64,000 nucleotides of DNA from Psammoneis japonica (Eukaryota), in NCBI GenBank assembly GCA_008632985.1, contig QPGO01000022.1, positions 682,001-746,000 of the forward strand, in the 5' to 3' direction. Within the stretch, counting starts at the first letter, position 1, and each line of letters starts with the position of its first letter. Positions 31,506-64,000 of this stretch are shown here, piece after piece. Made by a program: the position numbers and the translations under genes. Below the pieces are notes generated by a model, which was not told where the DNA came from, searched no databases, and was given only the letters and a program-made list of their open reading frames with translations.

Positions 31506-31569
31506 GCACTTTTTGTTCCCACAATTTCTCTCCGACTGCACTTTTTGTTCCCACAATTTCTCTCCGACT
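31506..31569 (+). repeat. Perfect 2 x 32-bp tandem repeat just before a cargo ATG
   Basis: gcactttttgttcccacaatttctctccgact twice. Confidence 0.9.
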
Positions 31570-31575
31570 GATTCG

Positions 31576-35488: not shown

Positions 35489-36973
35489 CTAATTTACAGA
35501 GCAAACTACACGGCAGACATTTTGCCAGACGCAGAGCTTCTCCTCCCTGACTTGGGGAGTGGGCGCGATTTCTTCTTCCGATTCATGGCACCCGACGTCG
35601 CCTTCCTCTTCTTCTTCTTCTTCTCCATTTGTCCAAATTGCATTTGCAGAGAAATTCCTCCCCGGGCATGATTTGCTTCGTGACTGCCAAGCACCCGTCA
35701 TTGTAGAACTCGCAGTTGTTGTCCGCGTGTTGGCTTGCCTTGATCTTCTTCTTGTCCTTGAACAACTCGGTGGCATCGTTCACGTGGTGCATTCCGAGGC
35801 AGAGTGGATGGGAATTCTTGTTCCCTGGACCACTAAAATCAAGCGGTTTTGGCTCCACTGTGACGCAGCAGCCCTCGCTGTCACGGATGGTGGAGCAGCA
35901 CACGCTGTGGTCTTCTCCAAACTTGCTGTCGTGGTCGTACCACGAGTGGCTCCTCGTCGTTCCGGGCACCCTGGGGCCCACGTAGATTCCAACCGCACTG
36001 CCTTTCTGGAACTGGCGCAAAGCAAAAAAACCAACACCTGCGCCCCTCCGTTGCGATGCGTGCAGCTCGCCCACCTCCACCTCCTTGGGGCCTGCGGAGC
36101 GAACGGACTTTTCAAGGCAAAACAACGCAGGTTGGATGACACGGCGCCTCATCCAAATGTGCACACTTCTGCACTTACTCTCTTCACAAGGTGGACCAGT
36201 GCGAGCAACCACCCCGCTTCGAAAGCCTCGACGGCGGTCTTGAACACTTCGTTGCTCTTCGGCGTGAGTCTGGGATGCCCCTCTCGCCGACTTCCATGCG
36301 GTGCCTCCACACCCACTTGCAGTGTTCGCCGTGAGCATTCGCGACGGCTTCAGGGTCGCTCCTGATGCACCCCAGTTCTCCCAGCGCGGGGCACCAGAGG
36401 TCGGGATTGTTCGGCGCATCCTTCATCAGGCACATGGACTCCTGGAAATTGTCGGATTTTTCGTGCCGCAACACCCAGTCCCACAAGTCGAATGACGGTT
36501 CGGTGGGGTCCGGAAATTGATTTCCTTCTTCTTCCTCTTCCGCCGTTGCTTTCGCGACCCCTTTGGCGCGGGCTTGGCTGCCTCCTCGCTTTTGCCGCTG
36601 CAAAAAGACAGGACCTCCGGTTTCACAAAGGTGGCCTGATCACCCACCAACTCGATCTTGCACCGGCCTCAAGCAGCTGCTCGGCGGTGTGACCCAGCTG
36701 CTGTGCTTCATTCCAACCACAAATTTGAAAGGTTGGCTCCGGCGGCTCGGCTTTCTCCCTCTTTTCAGTTTGGGACTGCGCCGGCTTCTCCGACATCCTT
36801 GCGCGTTCGGACTCGACGGACACACCCTCGGCACTTCCCTCGGCACTTCCCTTGGCACCGAGTGCAGTCATGGCAACTGCCGCCGCGCCTTCGGTGCCCG
36901 TGAGTTCTGCCGCGGCTTCTGGAGCTGTCACATCCTCTGCTTTGCCAGATGCAACGATGTTGTCCTCCGCCAT
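35489..36973 (-). pseudogene. SET-domain protein (element cargo), frameshifted, terminal Tyr read as Cys
   Basis: GAGVGFFALRQF.KG..VGIYVG, PLCLGMHHVND, IMPGEEFLCKCN; N-terminal pieces in ORFs 36623..37213, 36426..36650 and 36184..36603. Confidence 0.72.
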
Positions 36974-37637
36974 TCTGACGCCGTGATGACAGAGGTGCAC
37001 TGACTGCTGTGTGTGGTGTGCTGTGTTCCAGCCGTTGGCGATCCACATCCTTCTGCGCGCGTAAACGCACGACACTTCGTACCGAATTCGACGTGCCTGA
37101 CGCACCCTACACTGCCTGCCGCGTGCTTCCGACTTCCTCAACGTCCCGCCTCCACCACTTTCAACTTGTCCTCGGGACGTGGCGCGTCTGCACCTGTCTA
37201 CGTCTGTCTGCACTACGGCACTACAGCGCCCTGCATCAAAACTTCATTAATGTTTGTTTTTTGCTTTCTTTTCCTTTTCTCTTCTTCTTCCATCTGGCTG
37301 GGAGGAACTGCTGGATAGCCTGGGTATTTTATGAAATGCTGTAGAAATCTGTTTGTCACACTAGTTTGCGTACTTTAGGCTCTAGAGAGTAGCTCTAGCC
37401 TTAGGTCATGCCGCGACTCTCCAATTCGTGCATTCCCGATCTTGCTCCGTGGGAATATCGTACGCTCCATCCCCGTCGTTTGGCATCTTCAATTGCGCAA
37501 AGAATCTTTGACACGTCCAATCCAACCGACACCCATGACCAACTCGGACCAACAATAAGATGGCTGCGTCCAGTCTGCAGCAAACACCGGAATATCTATC
37601 TTCACGAGAAGATGATGGGTGCACCGGTGCCCCATAA

Positions 37638-42639: not shown

Positions 42640-45600
42640 GTTGCACACTTTTTCTGTGCAAGGGTGTAAAAAGTGGTGTCAAAACATCCAATTCTGAGTG
42701 CACAAATGCTGATCTGAAATGACCATCATGTTGTGTCAGACCATGTGTGAAAAGCTTCCTTCATGAAGCAGGCCACCTCCCTCATGGCACAGGCTGGTGA
42801 CACTGCAACTGCAGCATCCAAAGAGCTCTGACAATGGCAACTGCATTGAGCAAGCAATGAATGGTGCTCGTGAAGAAATCCAAGCTGGAGCACAGATGCT
42901 CTCCTGCAGAGAAACAAAGGGATGGTGGAGGACAACACCAGATTGGTTGCCTGTTGTTTCTTGTTGACAGGTCCAGGGCTTGAGCTGTGGGAAAACACTT
43001 GGCAGCACAAGCACAGTGCTGGATTTGATCTTTGCTCCTGAATCTCAACATTTGACCCACCGTTTTTGCTGGCTCCAACATGTGTGTGGTGTGCTCACAG
43101 TTCACAGCAGCAGATGCCCAAGCTGTTCAAGGGTGCCCTTTCTTGTTTGAGCACCTTTTAATCACCACAGGTGTTGGAACATTGTTGGGTTGCAACACAG
43201 ACAATGTTCTTGAAGTGAAAGTGACACTGACGATTGTTGGTGACATGGCAAATCCAAGTTCACAGCTTGTCATGAAAGTGGGTGTCATGCTCACTTTACA
43301 GCTTCTGCACCAGGACAACACAGCAATTGGTGCAGAGCAGTGTTTGCAATCCATGCGGTGAGCTTGGGGATGATTGGCAAGACTGGCACAAATCAGTCAC
43401 TGGCAAGCCATGAAATCCCAACACAGAAGCTAAAAAGGCTGGCTGGGAGGTCATCAAGAGTCCAAAGGTGCAGCTTGTGTCAGTGGATTGTGGCAAACAC
43501 ACAAGCTGGCTGGATGAAGTGAGCACCAAAGAGACAGTCTCTGGAGGACCTTGCTGTGAGGAAGCTTCAAGGGCCTGCTGGCTGAAAGAGGGTGTGGTGA
43601 ACTTGTGTCAAACTGGAAGAAACATCAACATGGGTGAGGACACAGCTGAGCATTGAAGCACAAAAGATTTGAAGGAGTGGATGTGACACCATTGCTGGGT
43701 TGGGTCAAAACAGCAGGCAGATGCTGGAATGCATGGAGACTGCAAGGAAAAAGGTGAGCATGTCAGAAGAGTGTTCAGGCTGGAGATGCAAGCACTTGTG
43801 TCTTAGAACAAAAAACTGGAGGAGCCTGAACATCCATTGGGCACAATCATGTCAGAGAAGGACAAGGTGATCTGGGGCAAGGGATGCAACCAACACATGA
43901 AACTGGGCACAATCTGCAAGATGCAGAAGGCAATGGCATTTGATGCAATTGTGGGACAGTGCATGAAGACCATCCATTGCACAAGGTTGAAGAAGGAGTG
44001 ATGGAGTTTGCAAAGTTGCAAAGGAGGGGGTGTGGTTGTGCTGTTGAAAATTCTCAAGTCGTTCTTGTTTGATGCAATCAAGAGAGAATCTGCTTGCATG
44101 TTCAGACTCTGTTCAGGGTTGAAAGCAGTTGGCACTCATTCGTCATCATGACAAAGAGGAGAGGCACTTCAAGATTGTTGCAACTGTCTCACAAGAGTTG
44201 TTGAGATTGTGGAAGGGTTCTGTGGCAGAGTCATTGCAGAAGAAATCACCAAGAAGAAGATGTTTTCAGCACGGATTCTGATGGCACCAAGAAGAAAGAG
44301 AGGAACAAGTTGCTGGCTGGCAGCACCGCTCATGGAAGGTGCCAAAAATGTTGGCATGTCTTGAAGGACTCACATCGGCAGTTGACACTGGGGGTTGACA
44401 ATTGCCCCAATTTGGCCAAGGAGGCACCAATGGTGTTGGACACATGTGGGGTCAACAAGAAAATTGAGGGAGCAAGCTTTGTGCAACATGAGAAGAAGCA
44501 GATCAAATGCTGGAAATGCAACAACATCTGGCATGTGAAGAAGGATTGTCCTTTGCTCAATGATGACAATGATCATTTGTCAGCAGAGTCAGATGAAGTG
44601 AGCCATGGGTCTCAATGAAGCAGTCGACATGGCACAGGGCAGCAGCATGAGCTCCAACTGCCATCCTCCTTGGGCAAGCATGACACATCATGAGGTCAAC
44701 CAATTGACAGCTTCTTGTGCAAAGGAGTGCGTTGAAACATTGGGGTGCAGTGCAGTTTTGGGAGCACAGACAGACAATGTCAAAGTGAAGAAAGCAACAC
44801 TGACAATTGTTGGTGATGTGGTGAATCCAAGATTGCAGCAGCTCAGCCATGAAAGTGGGTCTCATGCTCACTTTTTGGCTTTTGCACCAGGACAACATGA
44901 CCATCAATGCAGAGCAGTGTTTGCAATCCATGCGGTGAGACCAGGGATCAGCAAGACTGGTGTAGATGAGCTGGCGCCATGAAATCCCAACAACAGGAGT
45001 CAGCAGGAGCAAAAAGGGAAACAAAGAAATGTGAAGGAGAAACATGCTGCATTGTCAGCTTGCCAGTTGCAACAACTGCTTTGCCCCCAGCTGCAAGTTT
45101 GGCTTGTGTCATTGTTGCCACCACTTGCTGACCCACTGTTGCATTTTTTCAGGGCATTTTAGTTGTCTTTCAAAGCCAATTGTGTTTCCTGTTGGTTCAC
45201 ACAGCAGCACTTTGCAACTGGGGGTGCAATGAGCACACCCTCTGTTTCTAAATTGCTGGCACAGATCCCCTGCAATCTGCAATGATGTCCTCACACATGC
45301 CCCAGCTGTGCTTGCCAGCTCTCCTTGTCCCTCTCCACCTCCCAAACAACAAGAACAATTTTGACATCACTCCCATCAGAGTCTTCCTGCTGCTGTGGTG
45401 TCAACATGTGGTGTGCTTGTTTTGGCAACCTGCTTGACCTTTGGCTGAATCCTCAGCCCATGGACCCAAAAACACATCCACAAGAGGGAGCAGATGCAAA
45501 GTTTTGGCAATCACAGAGCAACAAACAGACAATGTGTGCCATTGATGTGTGGCGCACATTGCTGTGAAGTGCAAAAGTTGTTTGGAGTTTGAGAAAAAAG

Positions 45601-47690
45601 GTTTCTTTGAGAGAGAAAAAAAGGTTTCCAGGAGCAGTGCCACTGGCAAGTCCTCAGCAGTTGGGGCATCAAGAAGGGACCATTTTTCAAGCAGCAAACC
45701 ACCCAAGCCTGTTGGAGCAGAAAAACTCACACAATCTTGCAGAGCTGCTGGCTTTGGGCTTGAAAGATTTGAGAAAGACAAGGTTGGTGCCCCACAGCAT
45801 GGAAGACAAGTTTGCATCCCAGCCAGCTGTTGTTGTGCAAGAACCTTGGAACACACCATTGTCATTTGTTGCAAGGGCATGTTCCTTTTGGCTTCACTCT
45901 CACCTTCGCAACAGCTGGTGGAGCAATGCTGCACAACTGGCACACTGCATGCTCTTTTTTTCATGCCCTGCATTGACCTTTCCTGGGTCAGTTGGTGTTT
46001 CTCCAAGGAAACTCATGCTCCAGACCCTTCACAAAAAGAGTGAACAAAAGAGTGTGTGTGACCATGAGTTGTCATTTTTCACCAAAGCATGCATGCAAGC
46101 CATCCATGCCAGCAAGATGTGAGCCAAGGATTGCATTTTTCACTGAAGTGTGCATGTGCAAGCCATCCACACCAGCAAGATGTGAGCCAAGGATTGCAGC
46201 AGCAGTGGTGGCCCCACACCAAATCCTTGGCAGCTGGGAGTTGTTGGCAACAAGGGGCTTTCTTCTTTCTTTTTACACAGCAAGCCAAACTGATGGGCTT
46301 GGAAAGCCTCACACAAACTTGCAGCTGGTGAATTTGGTCAGAAAGATTTTGAGAAAAAACAAAGAGTCAAAGCAAAGAGAAAGAGAGAGAGAGAGCACAT
46401 CATTGTGATTGCAGATTGAAGAAAAACAAAGTGTTGGTGCCACAGAAGCAGAAGTCAAGGCAAAAATGGAGGGGAAGAGAGAGAGAGCACATCATTGCAA
46501 TGACAGATTGGAGCACTGAGCATCATTGCGCTGGACAACCATGCCGCTGAGCATGTGCCAATCTTTGCCCACAAGGCTCTTGTTGTGATGTGCTGTTTTG
46601 TCTTGGCACTCACACAGTGGGTTGGTGCTCATGGTGGCTCACTCATTCTTGCAAACACATGGTCTGGCTGCGTGAGCTTTGTGGGCATTTGGCAATGCTT
46701 TGGTGAGGAGGAGCAAGCTTGAAGCTGGAGGCTGTTTGTGACACAAAGATTGATGATGCTCTGAAGAGATGCAAGCTGTGAAGTGACACCTCTTTGCACT
46801 TCACACAACAACAATGGATGTTTCTGCCAAGTGGAATTGCAGTTCTTGAGGTCACAATCTGCAAAGGCACAAAGACAGTTGGACAGATGCACAACTTTGC
46901 CATCAACATTCTTGAGATGACAAAAGGTTTGTTGCCAGACTTGATGAGGTCTTGGGCAGTCATGACACCAGAATGACCTTTGTTCAGTTTGGCACTTCTT
47001 GGGTTGTTGGAGACAGCTCAGTCCATCTGGTGCTGGGTTTCAAGAAGGCAGCCAGTGGCACAAGATTGTCACTGAAGGGGTTGCTCTTGCTTAAATTGAC
47101 AGCACTTGGATGACAATGCCAGTGATGACAAGCAGCAGCAGCAGCAGCAGCAGGCACGAGTGTGCTAGATGAGATGGTGCCTGTTTGTGCTGGTCAGTCA
47201 AAAACAAACCATCAGGAGGACAAGCACCATGGGAGATGTGCTTCCCACCACAAAATGGGTTTTGGAGGACTTGAGGGAGTGTCAGAAGTGCGCCTGCAAC
47301 TGCAAAGACTTTGACAAACTTCTCAAGGGTTCCCAGATCAACTCTCAAATGTGGGGAGATCACCACCACCAGCAGACACGTGCTTCTCGGCAGGGGCTCA
47401 CAAACCACACAGAACATGGCAAGCACAACAGAGATGATTGCTGATGAAGGATTGCAATGGAGAAGATCACTGTTGGATGGGATGTCATTGAGATGATTGG
47501 AGGCAGCAAGACGCAGCCACTTGGGACACAAGGATTCATTCATGACATGGAAGACTACGAAGGGTGCTGGCACCTCTCTTGAGGTTCCGCAACCACAGCA
47601 CAGCAGCACAGAGGAGAGGACAGGTGCGGCAGGGGACAACAAGATGCTCTGAAGATGCAAATTGTGTGGTGATTGATTCCTCTTCACATC
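42640..47690. mobile_element. Nested degraded retroelement block, TpA- and CpG-depleted
   Basis: Almost no TA or CG over ~5 kb; gag zinc-knuckle relic; diverged internal repeat at ~43190-43420 versus ~44765-44995. Confidence 0.75.
44310..44618 (+). pseudogene. LTR-retrotransposon (Copia/CoDi-like) gag relic with CCHC knuckle
   Basis: LGVDNCP...KEA then CWKCNNIWHVKKDC (CX2CX4HX4C). Confidence 0.65.
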
Positions 47691-47941
47691 GCTGTGAATC
47701 GTGAATCAGATTCGTGAAGTGTGGCGAAACGCTTCCCGACGTCCACCGACCCGCCATAGGCTCAAGCCGCCGCCAACGCGCGCGACGACGTGCGCGATCG
47801 ACCGACTCCTGACTTCCCCGCCTCCGCTCTCCGCTCCTCCCGACTCCTCCCGACACAAGCCACGATGGTGTGAGTGTGAGCTGAACGCTGAGACCCTGAG
47901 AAAGATGTTGCCCGCCGTTGGTTCAGCACTTCCAGCCCGAA

Positions 47942-49593
47942 ATGAAATTCTGCATGTCTCGGCAAGTGGCTGTGGCACTCACTTTGGCACTTCTAAGCAA
48001 TCTATTGGAACCAGTTGCTTCGTTCGTACACTCAGCGACGATTTTCGATTCCGTCAAGAAGTTATCGCAAAGTGGCCGCAATGGATTTATTCCGAAGAGG
48101 TTGAACCTCCTGACGAATGATTCTCCTAATGATAATTTGGTGAAGTCATCTCATGGTGTGTTCTATCAAAGAGTTGGGTTGATCCCGAAGAAGTCAAACC
48201 TCTCGGCAAAAGGTTCTCCTGAAGATGGTAATGATTTCGACGATGCTGCTGAGCCAGATTCAACGTCGCGGTCGTGGATACTGTCCTTGCTTCTCCCTTT
48301 ATGGCTGGTTTATGTGTCAAATCAGTGGAGTAGGTCATCGATATACTATCTGGTTGATTTCTCATCCGGTGACGTCGACTCATTCCGCGCAATGAATGTT
48401 GATTTGAATTTTAGCGAGTCTCAGTATGGATTGTTGGCTTCGGTGGCCTTCACATCGTTGTTTGCTATCGCCTCTTTGGCTGCTGGTGTTGCATCCGATA
48501 GGTACAATCGAAAGGTACTTACTATTGTCAGTGTCGCATCATGGACCGTTGCAACACTCGGCACAGCATTCTCGTCGTCGTACGGTCAAGTGGTCGGGTG
48601 GAGGATTGCGATGGGTTTGGCGTGTGCCTTTTCCACGCCAACAGCTTATACGCTGCTGGCTCAGTTTGTTCCAAAAGAAAGAGCAGCTCTAGCTCTAGTC
48701 TATACGGAACCGGAGTAAGCCTTGGTGGGGGGTTGGCTGCGTTGTCGGTTCTGTTGGATTCGCAATTGGGTTGGCGCAATGCCTTGGTAGCGATAGCGGT
48801 GTTTGGGGTTGCGTCTTGCGCCTTGTCCACAATTCTACTGCCGAATGACCCAAAGGCGGTGGAAGAGAATGACGAGAAAATGGTTCATCAAGAAGAGGCC
48901 TCGTCATCTGTTATTGATGAGGTACTGGCTGTCATGGAATCGCCGAGGGTCAAGTGGCTGTTTCTAGCAAGTTTTTTTCGCTTTTGCTCCGGTCTTTGCA
49001 TTGGAGTTTGGTCGGCACCATATTATCGAATGATGTTTCCAGACAACGAGTCCGACTATGCATTTGCCCAAGCTTTCGTCACTTCTGCATTCGGTATAAC
49101 TAGCGGTTTGTTGGGAGGAGTCGCGGCTGACTGGGTGTCATCTGCTACAGACGATAGCGATGATCCCACCGGAAAAAAGTTGTGGATCCCAGTGGTTGGG
49201 TCTATTTTGGCCGCTCCAGCTTGGTACATGTCAATTCATTCTGTAGAATCGTTTCAAACTGCTATGATCTGGTTAGCAGCAGAGTACCTCGTCGCGGAGG
49301 TATGGTTTGGTCCTACCATCAATGTCCTGCAATCTACAGTCGGTCCAACCATCGGTGGGACTGCGCAAGGTCTTTTTACTCTCACTGGAGCGATTGGAAA
49401 TCTAGCACCAAGTTTACTTGGATTTCTTTACGGGCAGGCAACATCATCTAATACTGATTCTTCTTCCGCTTTGTCGGATCTTCTCTCTACAGGAGTTGTA
49501 GGAGGGTATTTGATATCTGCAATTTGTTTTGCCCTAAGCTCAACAGCATCACCAGAAGGCACAGTTCGTATGTCTAGAGAAATGGATAATTAA
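47942..49593 (+). CDS. MFS transporter (Spinster-like), copy 1, with 1-nt frameshift at ~48692
   Basis: Identical to copy 2 except gctctagctctagt versus gctctagcctctagt, I>V and N-terminal differences. Confidence 0.8.
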
Positions 49594-49680
49594 GAAGTTG
49601 TGGTTGCAGAGACATGGAAAGGTCGACGCATAATCAAATTTTAAAATGACAGTTGGATTTGCGGCAGAAAACCAAGCAAA

Positions 49681-51252
49681 TCACATAATATAATCTTGAA
49701 TGGTTTTCGCGATATCCTCTTCCCCAGTTACACCATCGAAATCAAAATCTTCCCATGTTATCAACTGATACAGTAAAATGTACCTTCTTGCCAACTCGAG
49801 AACTAATTCACGCGGTGCTTCAGGCAGAGTCTCGTCCTCATATGGGTTGCAATGGTCTCGAAACCACAACCGCAAAAATTCCTTGTCGATATTATCCGGC
49901 TCCTTTCCCTCGCTCATGCGTTGTTCGTATGTACTGGCTAGCCAATAACGCGATGAATCCGGTGTGTGTACCTCATCAATCAGTAAGATCTCACCAGTAC
50001 TTTCGTCTTTCCCAAACTCGTATTTGGTGTCGACGAGAATTAAACCGTGGTCTGAAGCTACTTCTTGTCCGAGAGCAAATACCTCTAGAGCGGCTGACGC
50101 GCAAACATCCCAATCTTCTTGTTTCATCCATCCCTCTGCGACGACATCATCTGGAGAAATAGGGCGGTCGTGGTCTTCCTCTTTTGTTGTGGGTGTCAGG
50201 AGGTTCGCCCACAGCTTTTCGTTCTTCGTCAAGCCCTCTGGCAACTCATGACCACAGTAGTTCCGCACTCCATTCTGATAATTCTTCCAGATGGAGGTCG
50301 AAGTGGATCCCGTCACGTAAGAACTACAGAGAGGTAAGAACATTAGTTTGAGTTGCAATCGAACAACAATGATTTTTACTCCTAAGCGAGATGAGCCGAG
50401 CAATGAGGAAACCTACCGGACTATAAATTCAATCGGAAAGGGACTGATGCCATGCGAAAAGGGAGATAAGAAATGAGTGGTAGGCAATGAAAAACTGTTT
50501 CCAGCCAATAAGAAATAACTTACTTGCACCGTTTCACAATGCTCACGTTGGAATGAGGTACCGCCACGAGATGGTTCGGAATAATGTGCTTCGTCTTTTC
50601 AAACCAAAAGGCGCTAGTCAAGTTCAACACTGCTCCCTTGTAAGGCACGGATGCCAAGTGTCGATCGAACCCTGATTGGCGGTCCGTCGTCACCAATACC
50701 ATTGCACCAGCACCAGCATACCGATCACGAACCTTTCCCCTCATCCGCTCTGGCAACGCGGCTCCAGCAATGTTGTCGCCGGTGATTTGATCATTTCTAT
50801 CGTATGCCTGTGCAATGGCTTGAGCGTACTTAGGAGATTTCGTCTGCAGCTGAGCATCATCGACCAGACGGCTCTGCTTGCGTTTTGCAAGAGACTCGCG
50901 TAGACACCGTCGAACCTGCTCATCCGCAAGCCCACACCATTTGGCGATTTCCAACGCTGCGTCGTGAGAAGGTTCTTTGATTTTCAACACTGGTACAGGA
51001 GTTTCATTCTCCAACGCCGATATTAATCGTGAACCTTGTTCCGAAGCAGTGCCAAGGTACACACACAACGCTGCTCGTTCTTGATTTTTAGCCAAACGCT
51101 CGAAAGGAATACTTGCAGATCGAACGCTCGAATCGAACAGGCCGAATTCCGACGCCAACTCGGTACAAATAGTATGTGCTGTGGCGATGAGGTCCTCTTC
51201 CTCCAGCCATGTCGATAACCGCAACCAGGAAAACCTTGGGAGCCGACGTCAT
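49681..51252 (-). CDS. purC: SAICAR synthase, copy 1 (frameshifted near the start codon)
   Basis: RGKVRDRY, TTDRQSGFD, PFPIEFIVR (27-nt exon 50417-50443), YVTGST, LTPTTK, LVDTKYEFG, IDEVHTPDSSRYW, DKEFLR. Confidence 0.88.
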
Positions 51253-51365
51253 GGTGAGAGCGCAAACTGCTGTACCGGGTACGCTCGCGCAGCGCACGAA
51301 AGATTGCTGTTGGCTTGGATGGAACGCGCGAAATGTTATGTACGTGCGTGGCTGGCCGGGTTCGA

Positions 51366-52834: not shown

Positions 52835-52855
52835 CAGCACTTCCAGCTCGAAATA

Positions 52856-54511
52856 ATGAAATACTGCATGTCTCGTCGGCAAGTGGCTGTGGCACTCACT
52901 TTGGCACTTCTAAGCAATCTATTGGAACCAGTTGCTTCGTTCGTACACTCAGCGACGATTTTCGATTCCGTCAAGAAGTTATCGCAAAGTGGCCGCAATG
53001 GATTTATTCCGAGGAGGTTGAACCTCCTGACGAATGATTCTCCTAATGATAATTTGGTGAAGTCATCTCATGGTGTGTTCTATCAAAGAGTTGGGTTGAT
53101 CCCGAAGAAGTCAAACCTCTCGGCAAAAGGTTCTCCTGAAGATGGTAATGATTTCGACGATGCTGCTGAGCCAGATTCAACGTCGCGGTCGTGGATACTG
53201 TCCTTGCTTCTCCCTTTATGGCTGGTTTATGTGTCAAATCAGTGGAGTAGGTCATCGATATACTATCTGGTTGATTTCTCATCCGGTGACGTCGACTCAT
53301 TCCGCGCAATGAATGTTGATTTGAATTTTAGCGAGTCTCAGTATGGATTGTTGGCTTCGGTGGCCTTCACATCGTTGTTTGCTATCGCCTCTTTGGCTGC
53401 TGGTGTTGCATCCGATAGGTACAATCGAAAGGTACTTACTATTGTCAGTGTCGCATCATGGACCGTTGCAACACTCGGCACAGCATTCTCGTCGTCGTAC
53501 GGTCAAGTGGTCGGGTGGAGGATTGCGATGGGTTTGGCGTGTGCCTTTTCCACGCCAACAGCTTATACGCTGCTGGCTCAGTTTGTTCCAAAAGAAAGAG
53601 CAGCTCTAGCCTCTAGTCTATACGGAACCGGAGTAAGCCTTGGTGGGGGGTTGGCTGCGTTGTCGGTTCTGTTGGATTCGCAATTGGGTTGGCGCAATGC
53701 CTTGGTAGCGATAGCGGTGTTTGGGGTTGCGTCTTGCGCCTTGTCCACAATTCTACTGCCGAATGACCCAAAGGCGGTGGAAGAGAATGACGAGAAAATG
53801 GTTCATCAAGAAGAGGCCTCGTCATCTGTTATTGATGAGGTACTGGCTGTCATGGAATCGCCGAGGGTCAAGTGGCTGTTTCTAGCAAGTTTTTTTCGCT
53901 TTTGCTCCGGTCTTTGCATTGGAGTTTGGTCGGCACCATATTATCGAATGATGTTTCCAGACAACGAGTCCGACTATGCATTTGCCCAAGCTTTCATCAC
54001 TTCTGCATTCGGTATAACTAGCGGTTTGTTGGGAGGAGTCGCGGCTGACTGGGTGTCATCTGCTACAGACGATAGCGATGATCCCACCGGAAAAAAGTTG
54101 TGGATCCCAGTGGTTGGGTCTATTTTGGCCGCTCCAGCTTGGTACATGTCAATTCATTCTGTAGAATCGTTTCAAACTGCTATGATCTGGTTAGCAGCAG
54201 AGTACCTCGTCGCGGAGGTATGGTTTGGTCCTACCATCAATGTCCTGCAATCTACAGTCGGTCCAACCATCGGTGGGACTGCGCAAGGTCTTTTTACTCT
54301 CACTGGAGCGATTGGAAATCTAGCACCAAGTTTACTTGGATTTCTTTACGGGCAGGCAACATCATCTAATACTGATTCTTCTTCCGCTTTGTCGGATCTT
54401 CTCTCTACAGGAGTTGTAGGAGGGTATTTGATATCTGCAATTTGTTTTGCCCTAAGCTCAACAGCATCACCAGAAGGCACAGTTCGTATGTCTAGAGAAA
54501 TGGATAATTAA
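52856..54511 (+). CDS. MFS transporter (Spinster-like), copy 2, intact; signal peptide + ASF suggests plastid targeting
   Basis: Motif A GVASDRYNRK, WRIAMGLACA, ~12 TM segments, N-terminus ...LEPVASFV. Confidence 0.9.
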   Translation: MKYCMSRRQVAVALTLALLSNLLEPVASFVHSATIFDSVKKLSQSGRNGFIPRRLNLLTNDSPNDNLVKSSHGVFYQRVGLIPKKSNLSAKGSPEDGNDFDDAAEPDSTSRSWILSLLLPLWLVYVSNQWSRSSIYYLVDFSSGDVDSFRAMNVDLNFSESQYGLLASVAFTSLFAIASLAAGVASDRYNRKVLTIVSVASWTVATLGTAFSSSYGQVVGWRIAMGLACAFSTPTAYTLLAQFVPKERAALASSLYGTGVSLGGGLAALSVLLDSQLGWRNALVAIAVFGVASCALSTILLPNDPKAVEENDEKMVHQEEASSSVIDEVLAVMESPRVKWLFLASFFRFCSGLCIGVWSAPYYRMMFPDNESDYAFAQAFITSAFGITSGLLGGVAADWVSSATDDSDDPTGKKLWIPVVGSILAAPAWYMSIHSVESFQTAMIWLAAEYLVAEVWFGPTINVLQSTVGPTIGGTAQGLFTLTGAIGNLAPSLLGFLYGQATSSNTDSSSALSDLLSTGVVGGYLISAICFALSSTASPEGTVRMSREMDN

Positions 54512-54551
54512 GAAGTTGTGGTTGCAGAGACATGGAAAGGTCGACGCATAA

Positions 54552-56117
54552 TCACATAATATAATCTTGAATGGTTTTCGCGATATCCTCTTCCCCAGTT
54601 ACACCATCGAAATCAAAATCTTCCCATGTTATCAACTGATACAGTAAAATGTACCTTCTTGCCAACTCGAGAACTAATTCACGCGGTGCTTCAGGCAGAG
54701 TCTCGTCCTCATATGGGTTGCAATGGTCTCGAAACCACAACCGCAAAAATTCCTTGTCGATATTATCCGGCTCCTTTCCCTCGCTCATGCGTTGTTCGTA
54801 TGTACTGGCTAGCCAATAACGCGATGAATCCGGTGTGTGTACCTCATCAATCAGTAAGATCTCACCAGTACTTTCGTCTTTCCCAAACTCGTATTTGGTG
54901 TCGACGAGAATTAAACCGTGGTCTGAAGCTACTTCTTGTCCGAGAGCAAATACCTCTAGAGCGGCTGACGCGCAAACATCCCAATCTTCTTGTTTCATCC
55001 ATCCCTCTGCGACGACATCATCTGGAGAAATAGGGCGGTCGTGGTCTTCCTCTTTCGTTGTGGGTGTCAGGAGGTTCGCCCACAGCTTTTCGTTCTTCGT
55101 CAAGCCCTCTGGCAACTCATGACCGCAGTAGTTCCGCACTCCGTTCTGATAATTCTTCCAGATGGAGGTCGAAGTGGATCCCGTCACGTAAGAACTACAG
55201 AGAGGTAAGAACATTAGTATGAAACTGAGTTGCAATCGAACAAAATGATTTTTACTCCTACGCGAGATGAGCCGAGCAATGAGGAAACCTACCGGACAAC
55301 AAATTCAATCGGAAACGGACTGATGCCATGCGAAAAGGGAGATAAGAAATGAGTGTAGGCAATGAAAAACTGTTTCCAGCCAATAAGAAATAACTTACTT
55401 GCACCGTTTCACAATGCTCACGTTGGAATGAGGTACCGCCACGAGATGGTTCGGAATAATGTGCTTTGTCTTTTCAAACCAAAAGGCGCTAGTCAAGTTC
55501 AACACTGCTCCCTTGTAAGGCACGGATGCCAAGTGTCGATCGAACCCTGATTGGCGGTCCGTCGTCACCAATGCCATTGCACCAGCACCAGCATACCGAT
55601 CACGAACCTTTCCCCTCATCCGCTCTGGCAACGCTGCTCCAGCAATGTTGTCGCCGGTGATTTGATCATTTCTATCGTATGCCTGTGCAATGGCTTGAGC
55701 GTACTTAGGAGATTTCGTCTGCAGCTGAGCATCATCGACCAGACGGCTCTGCTTGCGTTTTGCAAGAGACTCGCGTAGACACCGTCGAACCTGCTCATCC
55801 GCAAGCCCACACCATTTGGCGATTTCCAACGCTGCGTCGTGAGAAGGTTCTTTGATTTTCAACACTGGTACAGGAGTTTCATTCTCCAACGCCGATATTA
55901 ATCGTGAACCTTGTTCCGAAGCAGTGCCAAGGTACACACACAACTCTGCTCGTTCTTGAGTTTTAGCCAAACGCTCGAAAGGAATACTCGCAGATCGAAC
56001 GCTCGAATCAAACAGGCCGAATTCCGACGCCAACTCGGTACAAACAGCATGTGCTGTGGCGATGAGGTCCTCATCCTCCATGTCGATAAGCAGGAAAACC
56101 TTGGGAGCCGACGTCAT
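54552..56117 (-). CDS. purC: SAICAR synthase, copy 2, intact, with N-terminal PurE-like extension
   Basis: Same motifs as copy 1; three exons including the 27-nt exon 55293-55319 (PFPIEFVVR). Confidence 0.93.
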
Positions 56118-58129
56118 GGTGAGAGCGCAAACTATTGAATGAACCGCTCGCAGCGCTCGAGCACAGCGCCATGAGCTATCAGCTATCAGAATCCAGAAAA
56201 AGGGTACCTTACAGTTAATATAATGAATGAATGAAGCGTTGTCATAAATGGTCTGTTGTCGTCCGCGAGTTGTCTACTTCGGCACGTTCGGCAGACATCA
56301 TGACGAAGCCAAGCAAAAGCAGACGATGACGCCTCCTCTAACACTTTCTTCTACACAGACTCAGTGCTTCCACACATGGGCTCTTCGTTTCTCTGACAGT
56401 GAATGCCAACATCACCTCATTGCTTTTTTGTGCTTGAAAAGACCTGCACACATGACTGCCTGGTGGCAGTGTGGTGTGTGGCTGGTGCTGCTGCTGGTGT
56501 GCGGGCTGCTGGTGTGTGCTTGAGTCTTTTTGTTTTGATGGCAAACACTGGCATCACCATGAAATTTTTCAATTAAAAAGTCCTGCTCACACCACCCATG
56601 TGGGCCATGTGAAGATTTCTTGCCAGGAGCCACAGGAGCCACATCATGTCAGACACAATGTGCTGCAGCTTGCTCACGGCACAAAGCCCACCACCAGCAA
56701 AGTCGCGATCTGAGGATGTCTGGCCATTTCCACACCACGGGATTTTTTCTCCTGAATGCAAAAACGTCCTGTCTGACATGCATCATTTCCCATTGACAGC
56801 TGCACAAACAATGTCTGCAAGTCACATTTTCCACTGGTTGGGTGGGGCCCGTTGATGCTTGCACAAACAACATCTGCGAGCCACTCTTCCCCACTGGTTG
56901 GGTGGGAAAACTCTTGCCTGCAGTGGCTGCCATGACCTGTTTGACATGCAGCCCATTTTGCTGGCAGGGACAGGAAAAACCTTGGTCAATCACTTTGTTG
57001 CTGCAAATCATTTTTGCAAGTGCGCTTTGTCGGAGCATCCTCTGTCTGCAATCATCAATTGTCCAAACCAATGACCTCACCAGTTTGATTTGTGTGGTCA
57101 CCAGCACAGCCTTTTCTTTGCTCTCTTTTTGGGTTTCTTTCTCTGTTGGCCCCACCTGCCACAGCATTTTGTTTCTCTTGTTGCTCCTTGTCATCACACC
57201 CAGCCCCTCATCTCTGCTGTTCCAACGATGACCACACACACTCTCCTGTGGTTGCTCTTGCATCTTGTCATTGTTTCCATTTTGCCGCTGTTGTGTGATC
57301 ACTCTCCCAACCTTCCAGCAAGCTTTTTGCTGCTGTCTGCTTCCAACCCATTCTTCCAGCCTTCCAAGCCTTCTTGTTTTCTCCATGCATTTGTCATCAC
57401 CTTTGCCTCTTTCCCGTTGCTTGAGTGAGGCTGTCACACTCACAAGTGCCCCCCCCCCCCTTTTTTTTGAAAAATGGTGCAATGATGACAACGGCACAAA
57501 GCACTCATGTGTTCAATTTTTTTGTGAGTTGCTGAGTGTGGCAGCAGTGCTGTGACTCACCAGATGATGAAGCTGTGGAGGACAAGGAAGACAATTTTGT
57601 AGGTTGATTGCTTGTGCATTGCATTTTGGCATTTTTGTGGCAGCTGCACTGGCTGCTCCTCTGAGCTCAATTCAGCATGCCAGAATTTTCAATTTTTTTG
57701 TGATTCTCATTTGTTTTTGCATGCCAGCATGTGATTTGAAAACCAGCTTTTTTCAATGATGTTGCATGCAAAAAGAAGCCAAGCATGTCAGACACATGAT
57801 GCACAGTCAACCATGAGCATGTGTGTTGACCTTCCACTCAACAAAGTTTTCAAGTGGAGCACCACCCAACTCAGCACCAAATTGCAGAAAGCCAAAGTTT
57901 TTTCAACCTTCCAAGACTGGAAACCTGTCATGCATGGCAATGTTGCTCAGGACTCCACTGCACAACAATTTGCCAATCCTTGCTCAGGAGTGGCACTGCT
58001 CACAACACAACTCATCAACTTGTCAACCCTTTCTCAGGAGCAGCGCTGCTCACACAACAAGTCATCAACCTTTGCTCAGGATGCATTGAATGGGGCTGTT
58101 CTGTTCCCAAAACAGCACATGGCACTGAG

Positions 58130-59050
58130 GTTGGCAGGGTCAATCTCTTGCCCATGCAGCTGCTTGTTGCCTGTGTGTCTGGGGGGGAGGCTTGAAATTT
58201 GGTGCTGGCTGTGGTGCTGAAGAGATCAAAACAGAGTGTGGCACCAGCTGAGCAACTGCAGGCTGGACCCCAGAGGCTTGATTTGGGGGTCTTTTGTGGG
58301 TGCCAGGAAACACTTTGACAGTCATGAGCACAGTCATGGAGGACAGAGCTGCTGGATCCATCACTTGCCTGCCTGCATGTCCAGGAGAGGAAACTTGAAA
58401 TTTGGTGCCAGCAGAGCTTTGGTGCCAGAGGTTGCAGCAACTAAACAACTGCACGCAAAAGGTCCAAGGGCCTTTGGCAGGTGCCAGGCAATGCTTCAAG
58501 AGCTGTGGTGGCAAGAGACAGTTCCAGGGCCAATCTTTTGGCCATGCAGTCCACTCTCACCAACATGTCTGGAGGAGGAACAAGCTTGAACTTTGATGGA
58601 CCAGCTGCACAGTGCTGGAGGTCAAAACAGGGCACACCAGCCAAACAGGCAACTGTGGACCACCCAAAGGGTCTCAGGTTTTTTGGTGGGCACTGGGTCA
58701 CACTTTCTTGAGAGCTGTTGCAGCTCCTCTGGCTGACCTTTTGTCCATGCAGCCCATTCTCACCTGCCTCCTGTCTGGTGGTGGAGGAAACTTGAAATTT
58801 GACCCTGGATGTGTGGTGCCAGAGGTTGGGGTGGGTGCACCAGCCAAGCTGTGCTGCAGGCTGATGGATCCAAATGTCTTTGGTGGGTTTTGAGAGCTGT
58901 GGTGGACAGCTGCAGGTTCAGTGTCTTGCCCATGCAGCCCATTCTCACCTGTGTGACTGGGTGGGGGACTTGAAATTTGATGCACCAGCTGTGGTGCTGG
59001 AGGTTAAAATGGAGCACACCAACCAAGAAGCAGCTGCAGGAGGCCAACAA
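58130..59050. repeat. Degenerate ~195-200-bp tandem repeat, about 5 copies
   Basis: cttgaa(a/c)tttg...gtgc(c/t).gaggt recurs at ~58190, 58394, 58586, 58791 and 58969. Confidence 0.65.
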
Positions 59051-60799
59051 AACCATGGTGGACAACAATCCCAGGGTCAATCTCTTGCCCTTGAACTGGC
59101 TGGAAATCAGCTGCATCAGCTCAGGCAAAAGCATTGAGCCAACATCAATGTAGAGGCAGTTGTCATTGGGAAAACCCAACTCAGCTGCTTCATCAATTGT
59201 CATGTGGAAAAACCTTCTCCAAGAAACATCTCCTCCATCTGATGCATGGAGTGGCTGTCAAAGTTGTCAGAGGCACTGTCATTGTTGGAAAATCATGAAT
59301 GTGATGAGCTGACCAACAACTGAAACTCCAATCTGCAATTGATGTGTGTCAATGAGCCACAAACCAACAAAACACAAAATCTGCATTGTGAGTTCTGCCA
59401 CTTTTCCTCCTTGCACCTCTGGCAACAAGCTGGGCATGGCCTCCAGCAGCAAAGTGCAGAGCATCTCTCATGCATCATTTGAACATTGGCTCCAACATGG
59501 CCAGCTGGTTTTGCAGTCTGCATGTCAAGAGTGAACAAGGCACTCATCAACTGAGTCAAACAAACATGTGCCTTGTCTTTCACCAAATGGCAGCTGTCAA
59601 CTGTTGAGTGGTTTGCCCTTGTTGCCTCAATTTCTGTGTCAAAATGCTGCATGCCAGCTTCTCCTGGCTCCAAGAGTCACAGCCGGAAATGTTGTCATCA
59701 TGCAAGAGTCCTGCAGATCCAGCCACTGCCTCTGAGAGCAAAAAATGAAGCTTCTCCAGCTGCAGCTGCCTGAGTCCCAAACAGCAACACTGGAAGCTCC
59801 AACTCTGGGAGGACAACACACCATCCAACAGAGACCAGACATTTGTGCTTTGTTCTGTAAATGCAAGAAATGTCCAATGAAAAGATGTTGCCATTTGCCA
59901 CTCAAAGCTGTCTTGGGAGACAGCAGCTGCTTGCAAGCTGCAGTGTGTCTCATCTGGGTTGATGAAAATGACAAACCACCAGCCCTCCATGATGAAATGT
60001 GCTGCCACAATTGGGGAGTCACCGCTCTTTAATGTCTTGAACAAATTGAGCAATGTTTAGAAAGTTGAGTGGTGTGTCAAAATGTCTCAGACTTTTGTGT
60101 GGGAGGCACACTTTGCTTTCTGGATGCTGGCTTTTGGTGTTGCAGTTTTGCAATGGTGGCCCATCTCTGAACCCAAAAGGTGCCATGTGACATGCCCTCT
60201 TCCAGGGAATCCATTGGAGCTGCTCTGTCTTTGACAAGGCATTCTTGGTGTTTGTCACATGTGGCAGTGAGTTTGGCCTCTGCTTGTCAGCATTGAGAGG
60301 ATGTGCAAGTGTCTGCATTGTGCCCATGAACTGCCTTGCTGTGCTTCTTCTCCCAGAGTTCCCACCATGACCTCCATGTGTGCAATCCTGTCTGAACTTC
60401 CCACACAGAGTGAGGACAGTTCTCTCTGCAGCACTGTTCTAGAAACCCAACTCACAAAGATGCAGCTCCTGGAAGGTGTTCCACAAAGTTGAGTGACAAC
60501 CATTTTGAACAAATGCCATCAGCTGTGGATGAAGCACACAGGGCATGCATTGGATTTGCAGACCATCTTACAATGAAGCCATGCCTCAAGAGAAGACAAA
60601 AGAAAATCCCATGATGCAGGCATGGCATCAATCTCATCACAGTGCTTGCAAAGGTGCCATTGAAGAAAAGCACATTGCCATGCTTTGTTGTTTGGACATT
60701 CAAGTGTGTGGCCCCTGCTGTCCTCTGTGGGTTGCTCACATGCAAGGCAAGAATCTCAATTGCAGGGAGTGATTCATGAGTTGGCTTGGCTGTTGACAC

Positions 60800-61560
60800 A
60801 TGCTTCTCAGGAAATCATTTTGGACACAAGGTTTGTGCACATGCTCTGGTTGATCTTGTTGGCAGCTGATTCATCCCAGCAGTTGTTTTGTTCAAGGAAA
60901 CACTCCATGAGGGCAGGGGCCACAGCTGTGCAATGGACTGTTGCTTTTAATCTGGCTGCAACCATGCCATCCAACAGGCTGAGATGCAATTGGCAATGGA
61001 GAAAGGGCATCATTTGGGCTGCATCCAACATGCATTGACCTTGGCATTGACCTGCCAATTTGTCTGCATGTGCATCAACCCATGTGTTCAGGGGAAGAGA
61101 TGATGCTGGAGAGCACATCAATCCTGATGGCTCTTGACCCACAGTGTGTTTGGCACTTGGTCTGGAGCAGAAGTGTCTGCAAACAAAGCAATTTCAGTGA
61201 AAGTCTGACAGATTTCATTGACAACATCCTGGTCCAACAACAAGACATTGGCACAGTGATGCCAGAGATTGAAGTCTTTCTCTGGACATTCTTGATCAAG
61301 GGGGTTGACATTTGGTCTTGAGATGGACAGGCAAAGAAGGACATTCACCAGTGCATGGTCATCACACCAGTTGTCTGTGCCTTTGCAGATTTCAATCTGA
61401 CAGGATTCCAGGACCCCTCCTGACACACAAACCACAGAAGGGAGAGTGCACCACAAGCTTCCACACCATGTGAAGCAAGATGAAGAACAACCAAAAGCCA
61501 ACCCAGCACAATCTCAGCTAAAGGAACACTGTCAAACACATGCATTCATCACTCCCAAGA
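60800..61560 (-). pseudogene. RNase H-like relic of a non-LTR retrotransposon
   Basis: Ordered fragments GWL, SHGVEACGALSLL (cf. S.RAE.YG.L), WCDD..LV, WVKSHQD, LN..VD..ADKLA in shifting frames. Confidence 0.55.
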
Positions 61561-63268
61561 GATGCAGCATGATTGGACACCAGGCTGCCAACCAAAAAGT
61601 CATGGAGGAGGGAAGCATGAAACTCCAGATCAAAGAAGACATTAGATTCTCAAGCCAAGGAGGGAGGGCACAAGCAAAAACAAAAGCAACACCCCAAGAA
61701 AGGCTGCTGTGGTGCAACAACAAAAGAACAAGGTGTGCTGTGCTGTTGCAGGCAATGGACACAGTGCAGCATCCAGAGCAAATCTTCCAAAAACTGCAGG
61801 AGTGCTGCAGCAGAACTTGAGATCTAACAAAAGAGGGCAAAGCAGCTGTGAACAACTTTCAGTGGCAGAGTTGAGAGGAAAGAAAAAGAGCAAGTCTCTT
61901 TGCCTGTCTGGAAAATGTTGTTGCCATTGTTCAGAGTTGATCTGTGCTTGACAAGGAGCCTGTGTGTTCTCAACAAGTTCTCCTTGAGTGTGTGATCAAA
62001 GCATTGTTGACAATCAAGCAAATCAGCCAAGTGGGAAACTGGGCTTGATGAAATCTGGTTTGACTGTGCAGGAGATGGATTTTGCACATCATGTTTGCAA
62101 TGCAATCATTGTGAGTGTTGTTGTGTCAACAATTGAGCCAGTTGGCAAAACAGAAACAACAACAAATGACACATGTCACTTGTCAGTTGTTGATTTTAAC
62201 AACAGTGCATGTGAACAAATTGCTGACATGGCTCAGAACAACCACACAAATCAATCTCATCCACTCTCTTTTTCATTGGCTGTGTGAGTTTTTAATGGTG
62301 TGTCAACTGTTTCTCCTCTGCACACCTTCTTGTTGTGCCTGCTCCCTTGTCTTTGCTCTGTTGTTTCTTTTTGTTCTCCAAACTGTCTTTTGCTGTCCTG
62401 CATGGCCTTGCATCTTCTTGATCTTGGGTGTGTTGGTGTTTGTGCTCCAATTGGTGTCATGCTCCTGTTTTTTTTCTTTTTCAACAAGAGTCAGTTTCAG
62501 TGCATGTCATTTGTTGTGTGAGGGAGGCCAAAAAGCAATGCCTGCAAGAAGAAAGCACAGAAGTCTCAAGTTTTGCATGTTTGGTTGGCAACCATTTCAC
62601 AATGATGTTGCTTTCACTCACCTTTGTGCAACATGACAGTGAGGTGTTTTCTGCACATGCAAGTCATTGTTGCAAGAACATCTCCGACTGTCAAGGATTG
62701 GCAAAAAAATCAGTTTTTTGCACCATTCTGAAAGCTGCCTGTTTTTGCACTGCACTTCTGACTGCACGCCTTTCTCATCTCTTTTCTTCATTTGGATGTT
62801 GTTCAGCACAGTCCCAGGCTGTTTTTGGGCTTTGTCAGTGCCTTCTTGCAACACTGTCATTGTGCACAGGATGCATCCTGTGTTTTGTGTGGCACCAGTG
62901 ACAATGGTGTTTTTTGGCATGATGCCAAGCCAGTTGACCTTGTGATCATTGTCAGCATCATTTTGCAAGTGGCAATTTTGTCAAAAAGCCTTTCACTCAG
63001 TCTCACCCCCCCCATCTCACTGCATGGCTTGCAAACACATTGTTGATGCTGTCAATCACTGCCACCATGTCAGCCAGGTGCAGAAGCTAAAAAGTGAGCA
63101 CAAGATTTGCAACTCAACAGGAGCTGCAAATGCAAACTTGTCACATTGTCCTCAATTGTCAGTGCATCTCCTTTTCACTGTGCAACTTTGTCTGTGTCTG
63201 TCCTGCAAAACCTTCCTCCAAGCCCAATGTTCCTTCCCACAAGCTTCAATTGATTGGTCTCATGTGCA

Positions 63269-63732
63269 TCAAGCAAAGGAAAGTGACGCTTGGAATCCAT
63301 GCCACCTGACACCACCACATTGACCACTCCATTGATTCCTGTGGTCTGCATCATCCAACTCTGCCAACAATTGATCATTGTCAGGCCAACCCTTTCTCAC
63401 ATGCCCAACCTCATTGCATTTCCAACATCTTGTCTGCCTCTTCTTCTTGATCTGCACAAAACTTGCATCATCAGGTTTCTTGTTGGCCACACAGGCATCC
63501 AACACCTGCAGTGCCTCCTTGGCTGAATTGGGAAAAATGTCAACCCCAATGTGAGCTGCTGATGTGGATCTTTCAAGACATGCCAATGTTTCTCAGCACC
63601 TTCCATCAGCGCCACTGCTGACAACTTGTTTGTTTGTTTTTTGTCATGGGCATCATCAGCATCCTTGCTGATCCCATTTTTTGGCAATTTCTTCCAGGAT
63701 GATCCTGCCACAAGATGTTTCCACCACTTCAA
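63269..63732 (-). pseudogene. Second gag/CCHC relic homologous to 44310..44618
   Basis: HVLKD.H.QLTLG / GVDIFPNSAKEA..VLD.C..NKK...ASFVQ...CWKCNEVGHVRKGW. Confidence 0.65.
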
Positions 63733-64000
63733 CCAAGCTCATCAACCAACCACAATGACATTGAAGTGCCTCTCTCTTTCACATTGATGAATGAAGACTG
63801 GCTGCTTCCAAGCCTTGACCACCTGGACATGTGGACTTGGGGTCGTCTTCTCATTTGCATCAAACAAAATTGACTCAAGAACATCCAGCAGCACCACCAC
63901 ATTCCTCACTCCTTTGCAACTCTTGTGAACTCTGTTGCTCTTTTTCAAGTTTATGATGAGAGGTCTATGTGCATTGCCTCGCAACAACTTCAAATGCCTT

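Follow-up and report, generated by a model that had tools for sequence, protein, structure and literature searches.

We analysed a 64,000-nucleotide stretch of the genome of the diatom Psammoneis japonica (GenBank assembly GCA_008632985.1, contig QPGO01000022.1, positions 682,001 to 746,000), called the window hereafter and numbered from its first base. Its terminal block, 56340-64000, has lost nearly all of its TpA and CpG dinucleotides. TA has been changed to TG or CA, here and in three further blocks of the window, one of which is a Helitron transposon. The change is restricted to TA and CG, is confined with sharp edges to transposon-type DNA, affected both strands about equally and took place independently in each copy after duplication. 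The per-strand rate depends on which base follows the A on its 3' side and falls in the order T > C > G > A. The reading that we favour, and hold to be rather probable, is that old transposon-derived DNA was rewritten by a TpA-specific A:T>G:C hypermutation together with CpG decay, the agent of the hypermutation presumably being a nuclear DNA adenine deaminase.

Loss of TpA and CpG in block 56340-64000

Dinucleotide profiles of the window revealed four blocks with TA near zero and CA/TG about doubled (17750-18760, 23500-37000, 42700-47700 and 56340-64000). CG was also almost lost in three of the four and was retained in the block at 23.5-37 kb. With observed-to-expected ratios abbreviated o/e, the corresponding features are:

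56353..64000, no strand assigned: TA- and CG-depleted block, a decayed repeat, continuing past the end of the window
42668..47756, no strand assigned: second TA- and CG-depleted block; its part 42700-47700 holds 11 TA (o/e 0.03) and has CG o/e 0.09
17695..18810, no strand assigned: small TA- and CG-depleted block with 3 TA (TTAA 2, GTAG 1), TA o/e 0.06, CG o/e 0.21
23371..37061, minus strand: Helitron, multi-copy and part-way through the process, TA o/e 0.19, CG o/e 0.86, with PIF1, Helitron_like_N and DUF6570

Only 20 TA remain in the 7661 bp of block 56340-64000 (2.6/kb, o/e 0.04) and only 25 CG (3.3/kb, o/e 0.06), against 41.4 TA per kb (o/e 0.61) and 57.1 CG per kb (1.00) in the unique DNA of the window (36,826 bp). 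TG+CA reached 234.4/kb (o/e 1.88), and the GC content remained unchanged, at 0.474 in the block and 0.478 in unique DNA. When the losses and gains were balanced against unique DNA, 92.6 TA+CG per kb had disappeared from the block and 94.5 TG+CA had been gained, and the corresponding values for 42700-47700 were 90.9 and 91.6. This mass balance, together with the conserved protein columns and the homologous copies described below, shows that the change runs from TA to TG or CA. Other A-containing dinucleotides were spared, the o/e in the block and in unique DNA being 0.80 and 0.90 for AT and 1.05 and 1.00 for AG+CT. TG (901) and CA (895) were balanced in the block, and strand-coordinated runs of TG or CA did not exceed the level of unique DNA (z=-2.2 in 56340-64000 and -1.2 in 42700-47700, with -3.1, -3.4, +1.1 and -0.4 in unique DNA).

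The earlier note on this DNA had proposed error-prone repair synthesis in methylated repeats, of the kind made by polymerase eta (WA>WG, where W is A or T), as an alternative to a deaminase. Such synthesis does yield A>G at TA, and the CpG decay of the repeats is consistent with methylation. However, AA+TT stood at 167.9/kb in block 56340-64000 (o/e 1.21) and at 156.9/kb in unique DNA (1.15), that is, without any depletion, and AG+CT showed no matching rise. The intact AA/TT excludes a WA>WG process of this type, and the proposal therefore did not hold up; we regard it as highly improbable.

The left edge of the block is sharp, the final TA of normal density lying at 56352 and the following one at 56574. 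Between 56353 and 57500 TA is lost, yet 15 CG remain, while past 57700 only 10 CG are found in 6.3 kb. The block may thus consist of two sub-blocks, differing in age or methylation state, joined near 57500-57700.

The end of the block (63064..63998, minus strand) proved homologous, in inverted orientation, to 43935-44901 in the second depleted block, with 85% likeness over 980 columns after purine/pyrimidine recoding. This homology identifies the segment as repeated DNA. The nucleotide alignment of the two segments comprised 982 columns, with 607 identities, 205 transitions and 108 transversions. Its pyrimidine-purine dinucleotide pairs included 60 TG/TG, 57 CA/CA and 41 CA/TG, and the 41 mixed sites show that each copy underwent conversion on its own, subsequent to their separation. 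A CCHC zinc-knuckle pattern, CWKCNNIWHVKKDC, is present at 44508-44549 (plus strand), in the segment common to both blocks. The pattern is a possible trace of Gag from a long terminal repeat (LTR) retrotransposon, although Pfam did not detect it. The transposon identity of block 56340-64000 was assigned from this pattern and the homology to 42700-47700 only. A Pfam search of 45 open reading frames (ORFs) from 42700-47700 and 56340-64000, 29 of them from the latter block, gave no credible match. The sole hit, DUF6044 (E=0.008), was below the cut-off of that family and was rejected.

Two genic segments lie between the large depleted blocks:

47924..51268, plus strand: segmental duplication copy 1, 3.3 kb of ordinary genic DNA, TA o/e 0.52-0.72, not hypermutated
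52835..56133, plus strand: segmental duplication copy 2 (gene of a major facilitator superfamily, MFS, transporter), TA o/e 0.49-0.75, not hypermutated

The two copies are direct repeats carrying MFS transporter genes, 97% identical, and served as an unmutated control. They differ by 23 substitutions, about 4 of which are TA<->TG/CA, too few to interpret. TA o/e in the flanks and in this genic duplication was 0.49-0.75, so that neighbouring host DNA is unaffected. At the other extreme, the small block 17695..18810 is single copy at a likeness of at least 80% in sequencing run X1, whose contigs were compared at 80% likeness with the stretch 17501-37500: its depth, 61.1, equals that of the flanking unique DNA, and it lies within one X1 contig spanning 17501-23308, between two host genes. 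Since a 97% genic duplication was left untouched and this single-copy block was depleted, the trigger is not duplication as such. The small block itself can be read in two ways, as an old remnant with relatives that are by now too divergent, or as a sign that the mutator does not respond to copy number.

As to the surroundings, copy 2 of the duplication ends about 200 bp before block 56340-64000, and the blocks 42700-47700 and 56340-64000, with their inverted homologous segments, bracket the duplication. A tandem array with a 75-bp period and copies 95-97% alike occupies 51362-51833, between the duplicated segments. Besides the Helitron, the window carries genes for a protein kinase, Tcp11, MFS and amino-acid transporters and a sulfatase. 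The named proteins nearest to that of the sulfatase ORF belong to pennate diatoms (Epithemia, Nitzschia, Seminavis), with identities of 51-59%, as for a pennate-diatom-like host.

Flanking bases of the surviving TA sites

Thirteen of the 20 TA left in block 56340-64000 are in the context YTAR (pyrimidine-TA-purine), namely TTAA 6, CTAA 4, TTAG 2 and CTAG 1. The remaining seven carry TAY on one strand (GTAG 2, CTAC 1, GTAA 1, TTAC 1, TTAT 1, CTAT 1), and none is RTAY. This agrees with the earlier note, which had seen mainly YTAR among the survivors. All 12 positions that it named fall within one base of a YTAR site, and it overlooked a thirteenth, the TTAA at 62293. It had also described ATA and TAT as almost absent until the last 60 bp; there is indeed no ATA, and the only TAT are at 63952 and 63966. 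Its proviso that the preference is not absolute is borne out by the two GTAG and one TTAC among the seven one-sided survivors.

The excess of YTAR was significant against each null used: base composition (expected 0.249, p=1.8e-4), a first-order Markov model (0.323, p=3.1e-3) and the unique DNA of the window (294/1523 = 0.193, p=1.0e-5). The excess thus persists after the base-composition correction that the note had asked for. The unique DNA itself shows the reverse skew, with YTAR at 19% (25-29% expected) and RTAY over-represented at 28% (425/1523), plausibly because the trinucleotides of stop codons are avoided on either strand. In 42700-47700, YTAR accounts for 7 of the 11 TA. When the three blocks with full depletion (17750-18760, 42700-47700 and 56340-64000) were pooled, 22 of the 34 survivors were YTAR, 12 were one-sided and none was RTAY (YTAR against unique DNA, p=9.1e-9). 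The NTAN tetramers are therefore unequally depleted, as the note had supposed. TTAA is the commonest survivor of these old blocks (10/34), and 20 of the 34 lie in TAAA or TTTA.

It could be argued that the YTAR sites are not survivors at all, but new TAs made by C>T at CA/TG, for example by deamination of non-CG methylcytosine at CAG/CTG. The large blocks are methylation-decayed (CG o/e 0.06-0.09), and their approximately 234 TG+CA per kb would supply raw material. However, random origin from the blocks' own NTGN and NCAN predicts 23.6% YTAR where 65% was seen (p=4.2e-7), the commonest survivor, TTAA, has no CAG/CTG origin, and the Helitron, with normal CG, already has the same skew. We consider such an origin quite unlikely, and treat the YTAR sites as survivors below.

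In order to estimate rates, we used a two-strand model in which the survival of a site is the product of its strand survivals, each determined by the 3' base, and fitted it to the 16 NTAN counts. The rates (k, with the 3' base) were:

Helitron, unique-DNA baseline: kT 2.59, kC 0.65, kG 0.44, kA 0.09; Y against R p=2e-13; four against two rates p=1e-14
Three old blocks, unique-DNA baseline: kT 3.71, kC 2.08, kG 1.11, kA 0.51; Y against R p=1e-10; four against two rates p=0.005
Block 56340-64000 alone, baseline from unmutated relatives: kT 2.90, kC 2.17, kG 1.10, kA 0.33; Y against R p=8e-7; four against two rates p=0.099

The same order was obtained with a baseline from three unmutated Helitron relatives, and in a hypermutated relative (L001, below). 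The rate order is TAT > TAC > TAG > TAA. The preference for TAY>TGY proposed in the earlier note was thus right in placing a pyrimidine 3' of the mutated A, but lacking in detail: rates in the Helitron put TAT in front by a wide margin, with TAC (0.65) barely above TAG (0.44). The survivors follow from this order, since YTAR is the slow context on both strands and remains last, while RTAY is the fast context on both strands and is gone.

The Helitron at 23.4-37.1 kb and its relatives

The Helitron provided a view of the process before completion. Its Rep/helicase ORFs are:

24347-27634, minus strand
28160-29341, minus strand
29376-30065, minus strand

The TA depletion is about co-extensive with the multi-copy element. 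In X1 contigs (80% likeness, 3656 pieces) the depth was 1794-5684 in bins 23504-36843, compared with 61 for unique DNA, which corresponds to roughly 50-90 copies. Among its 148 TA, 61 are YTAR and 13 RTAY, and only 12 lie in ATA or TAT; ATA/TAT is nearly extinct, and GTA/TAC only mildly reduced. About 70% of the TA in the Helitron is gone at a CG o/e of still 0.86, indicating that the loss of TA is the faster process and that CpG decay follows. Variants between copies comprised 102 A>G, 96 T>C, 92 G>A and 112 C>T, against 61 transversions. Among 40 of the 483 variant entries, CG<->TG/CA was the commonest class (18) and TA<->TG/CA accounted for 8, of which 5 were TAY and 3 TAR, too few to use. 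Internal tandem repeats of about 115-120 bp, 72-81% alike, occupy 30122-30765, just upstream of the Rep ORFs, and Pfam found nothing in five further ORFs of the 30-37 kb part of the element.

Conserved columns of the Helitron proteins were judged against 22 full-length homologues. The 533 conserved columns included 127 that differ from the homologue consensus, and a single TA>TG/CA step explains 38 of these. The fraction of sites mutated varied with the base 3' of the A: 7/8 for T, 22/30 for C, 5/10 for G and 4/12 for A. TAY was mutated in 29 of 38 cases and TAR in 9 of 22 (Fisher p=0.011; strand-stratified p=0.044), and TAY exceeded TAR within each strand separately. Tyrosine was particularly affected: the 26 conserved-Tyr columns now hold Cys (15), His (5), Tyr (4, all TAC), Phe (1) and Arg (1), while conserved His and Trp columns are 100% kept. 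The helicase ORF contains 0.46% Tyr, compared with 1.99-4.53% in 77 of 78 database homologues. In a leave-one-out control, the homologue P0121 had kept Tyr in 22 of 28 columns. Two Tyr codons at window positions 27436 and 27424 (minus strand), four residues apart and invariant in 22 of 22 homologues, have become Cys (TGC) and His (CAC). This invariant pair is presumably the catalytic pair of rolling-circle transposition, in which case the window copy would be dead, as would the relative L001, which has identical Cys and His replacements at these columns.

L001 was one of four loci (L001-L004) obtained in a metagenome scan with the Helitron alignment. This Helitron (2047-7695, 45% identical) has an unbroken frame of 1882 codons, with TA o/e 0.03, CG o/e 0.30 and only 0.11% Tyr. 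Its 28 conserved-Tyr columns hold Cys 17, His 5, Phe 5 and Tyr 1; the five Phe are changes beyond the reach of the mutator. Of its inferred events, 27 of 28 are in the TAY context, and none of its 13 surviving TA is RTAY. Most other classes of conserved residues were 80-100% kept (Ile 56%, Met 62%), so that TA hypermutation was saturated before ordinary substitutions had accumulated. The loci L002, L003 and L004 were not hypermutated (TA o/e 0.37-0.68, without YTAR skew) and served as the baseline of unmutated relatives. A third low-Tyr relative, P0176, is represented by its protein only (Tyr 0.80%).

These proteins bear on a further question. Survivor counts cannot distinguish a rule for a pyrimidine at +1 from one for a purine at -2 (R-T-A), since the two are mirror images on opposite strands, and the flanking effect might thus have been assigned to the wrong side, or reflect a strand bias specific to each copy. 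The Tyr columns of P0176, with 14 His and 7 Cys, and the purine-preceded Tyr codons of the window copy, with 10 Cys and 3 His, would be in line with this. Cys/His outcomes are heterogeneous across the window copy, L001 and P0176 (p=0.004). On the other hand, pyrimidine-preceded Tyr codons became TGY in 18 cases and CAY in 3 (window copy 5:2, L001 13:1; p=0.0015), although neither element has more TG than CA on its coding strand overall. This combination favours the +1 pyrimidine rule over the -2 purine rule. The Cys:His split in L001, 4:4 after a purine and 13:1 after a pyrimidine, is exactly the one that the +1 rule predicts, and the excess of TAY over TAR within each strand points the same way. 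Mis-assignment is therefore improbable in our view.

We also considered A-to-I editing at the RNA level, by an enzyme of ADAR or ADAT type acting on transposon transcripts, the changes being fixed when the edited transcripts are reverse-transcribed and reinserted. In view of the CCHC pattern, the two older blocks may derive from retroelements, and a 5' U preference is known for such enzymes (PMC13431901). However, the best-documented target is the Helitron, a DNA transposon without an RNA intermediate. The even strands (TG 901, CA 895) and the independent TG/CA outcomes of homologous copies also argue against it. ADAR prefers G as 3' neighbour, while TAG and TAA are the slow contexts here. Editing of transcripts is in our judgement very unlikely.

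Least probable of all is an artefact of sequencing or assembly, such as base-calling errors at modified bases. The repeats are probably heavily modified, and the runs used for comparison come from one sample, perhaps that of the assembly itself. However, X1 contigs reproduced the block at 17.7 kb with no alternative letter inside it among 40 of the 483 variant entries, and 972 of the 3656 pieces placed on 17501-37500 were at least 99% alike. The same signature is found in L001, an unrelated metagenome contig, and low Tyr in P0176, a protein from another assembly.

The possible agent and related systems

In the proposed mechanism, block 56340-64000 would be old transposon-derived DNA of the diatom genome that was rewritten in place by two transition processes confined to mobile DNA. 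The fast process would be specific for TpA, changing A:T to G:C and giving TG or CA according to the strand attacked; the slower one would be CpG decay, turning CG into TG or CA. The agent of the fast process would be a DNA adenine deaminase of the nucleus that strictly requires a 5' T and converts A to inosine, which is read as G. Cues from chromatin or small RNAs, rather than duplication as such, would direct it to mobile or foreign DNA. An adenine deaminase is our best guess for the enzyme from the mutation pattern; no match to a deaminase family was found among the ORFs scanned in the window.

An alternative to a deaminase is chemistry on the thymine. The T of R-T-A might be modified or oxidised in silenced DNA, for instance by a hydroxylase of TET/JBP type that forms 5-hydroxymethyluracil or 5-formyluracil; mispairing of this product with G, or its faulty repair, would give T>C. 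The results are symmetric in this respect, 'A then Y' on one strand being 'T after R' on the other. In dinoflagellates, 5-hydroxymethyluracil occurs preferentially at TpA, and 5-formyluracil mispairs with G. T>C via oxidised thymine is nevertheless a weak mutagenic route, and the sites studied here stand at 96-97% loss. Moreover, the obligatory T-A step, with loss of TA only, fits the 5' T rule of deaminases of the TadA/ADAT family (for this preference, PMC13431901). We consider thymine chemistry unlikely.

The natural site of TadA is U-A-C, and the earlier note had drawn on it; the analogy is weaker than it implied, since TAC in the Helitron (0.65) is barely above TAG (0.44) and TAT reaches 2.59. 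The preferred 3' neighbour is C for TadA and G for the fungal Tad2-Tad3 (TTAGGA), while here it is T most and A least. Editing of mRNA by fungal Tad2-Tad3 is 21.8-233 times likelier at TA than at other NA and favours TTAGGA, and Tad2-Tad3(-Ame1), TadA and base editors share a near-obligatory 5' T/U with the process described here (PMC13431901). Tad2-Tad3 and TadA act on RNA loops, or on DNA once engineered, whereas the process here would act on DNA.

Several points weigh against the deaminase reading and the +1 rule. Deamination of A and chemistry on the paired T are inseparable by the sequence data used here, and a 3' T preference is unlike that of either TadA or Tad2-Tad3. The YTAR excess in L001 is not significant when taken alone (5/13, p=0.33). 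The Cys:His ratio in P0176 is the reverse of that in the window copy and in L001 and runs counter to the prediction of the rule, perhaps through a copy-specific strand bias, and the purine-preceded Tyr codons of the window copy alone depart from the 1:1 that the rule predicts. The rates depend on an ancestral NTAN make-up assumed from unique DNA or from three unmutated relatives. Finally, the single sample behind runs X1 and X2, perhaps the source of the assembly itself, confirms only the Helitron and the block at 17.7 kb.

A system of this kind has just been described in the chlorarachniophyte Bigelowiella natans (bioRxiv 10.64898/2026.01.13.699255). Of the 231 mutations that mutation-accumulation lines had in two regions of integrated viral DNA, 230 were A>G or T>C, on TpA, and the hypermutation of integrated giant-virus and virophage DNA ran about 1000-fold above background; Mettrop et al. 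propose an ADAT2-like adenine deaminase. As in the window, TpA alone is turned into TpG/CpA in foreign or mobile DNA, leaving a long-term footprint in which TpA is scarce and CpA+TpG abundant, and the diatom system would be of the same kind. The differences are that the host here is a diatom, a stramenopile, and the targets are a Helitron and repeat relics instead of viral insertions. The depletion is also deeper (o/e 0.03-0.04, against 0.45 for the B. natans viral region), with CpG decay superimposed. Saturation before other substitutions accumulate has its counterpart in the approximately 1000-fold rate of B. natans. The terms 'trinucleotide', 'context', 'flanking' and 'CpG' are absent from the main text of the preprint, and no analysis of flanking bases was found in it.

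Repeat-induced point mutation (RIP), known from ascomycete fungi, resembles the process described here as a genome defence that makes one transition at one dinucleotide, with sharp limits and in each copy independently. RIP changes C to T at CpA, however, so that it makes TpA and lowers GC, whereas here TpA is destroyed by A>G. It is also triggered by duplication, whereas here the 3.3-kb, 97% duplication was untouched and the single-copy block at 17.7 kb was depleted. Fungal RIP was accordingly rejected as a candidate for block 56340-64000 (TpA o/e 0.04, CpA/TpG 1.88, GC 0.474 against 0.478). APOBEC3 and AID, which hypermutate viruses and retroelements, likewise exemplify enzymatic editing as defence that leaves a dinucleotide footprint in its target, but they act on cytosine, typically in strand-coordinated clusters; here adenine is affected, and no clusters were found beyond the level of unique DNA. 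Methylation-driven CpG decay explains the CG>TG/CA half of the block and cannot remove TpA.

For a long time the only known form of hypermutation aimed at repeats was the deamination of cytosine (RIP, APOBEC). Its TpA-specific A>G counterpart has to date been described in a single 2026 preprint, the one cited above, for one chlorarachniophyte, and a literature search with little coverage of subscription journals found no report of TpA-depleted repeats in diatoms. We regard the present case as a further instance of that system; new here are the lineage, the transposon targets, the saturation and the flanking-base hierarchy. This hierarchy is a biochemical fingerprint that speaks against polymerase eta and ADAR-like enzymes, and it offers a direct assay for the identity of the enzyme on oligonucleotides carrying TAT, TAC, TAG and TAA. 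Should the enzyme prove to be a natural DNA adenine deaminase, base-editing work would have an interest in it. Such repeats evade homology-based transposon annotation, as illustrated by the 45 ORFs without a Pfam assignment, and purine/pyrimidine recoding can recover them.

The footprint at saturation in diatom transposons and in unrelated metagenome sequences suggests that the process is widespread among ecologically dominant algae. It is possible, and we put it forward tentatively, that diatoms, and perhaps many stramenopile, alveolate and rhizarian protists, possess a RIP-like defence. Its natural DNA adenine deaminase, with chromatin or small RNA and not duplication as its guide, would erase TpA from transposons and integrated viruses in situ on both strands, in the order TAT > TAC > TAG > TAA. 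If this is true, these genomes would share Tyr-free transposases and TG/CA-rich 'dark' repeats as a general trait that has so far gone unrecognised.

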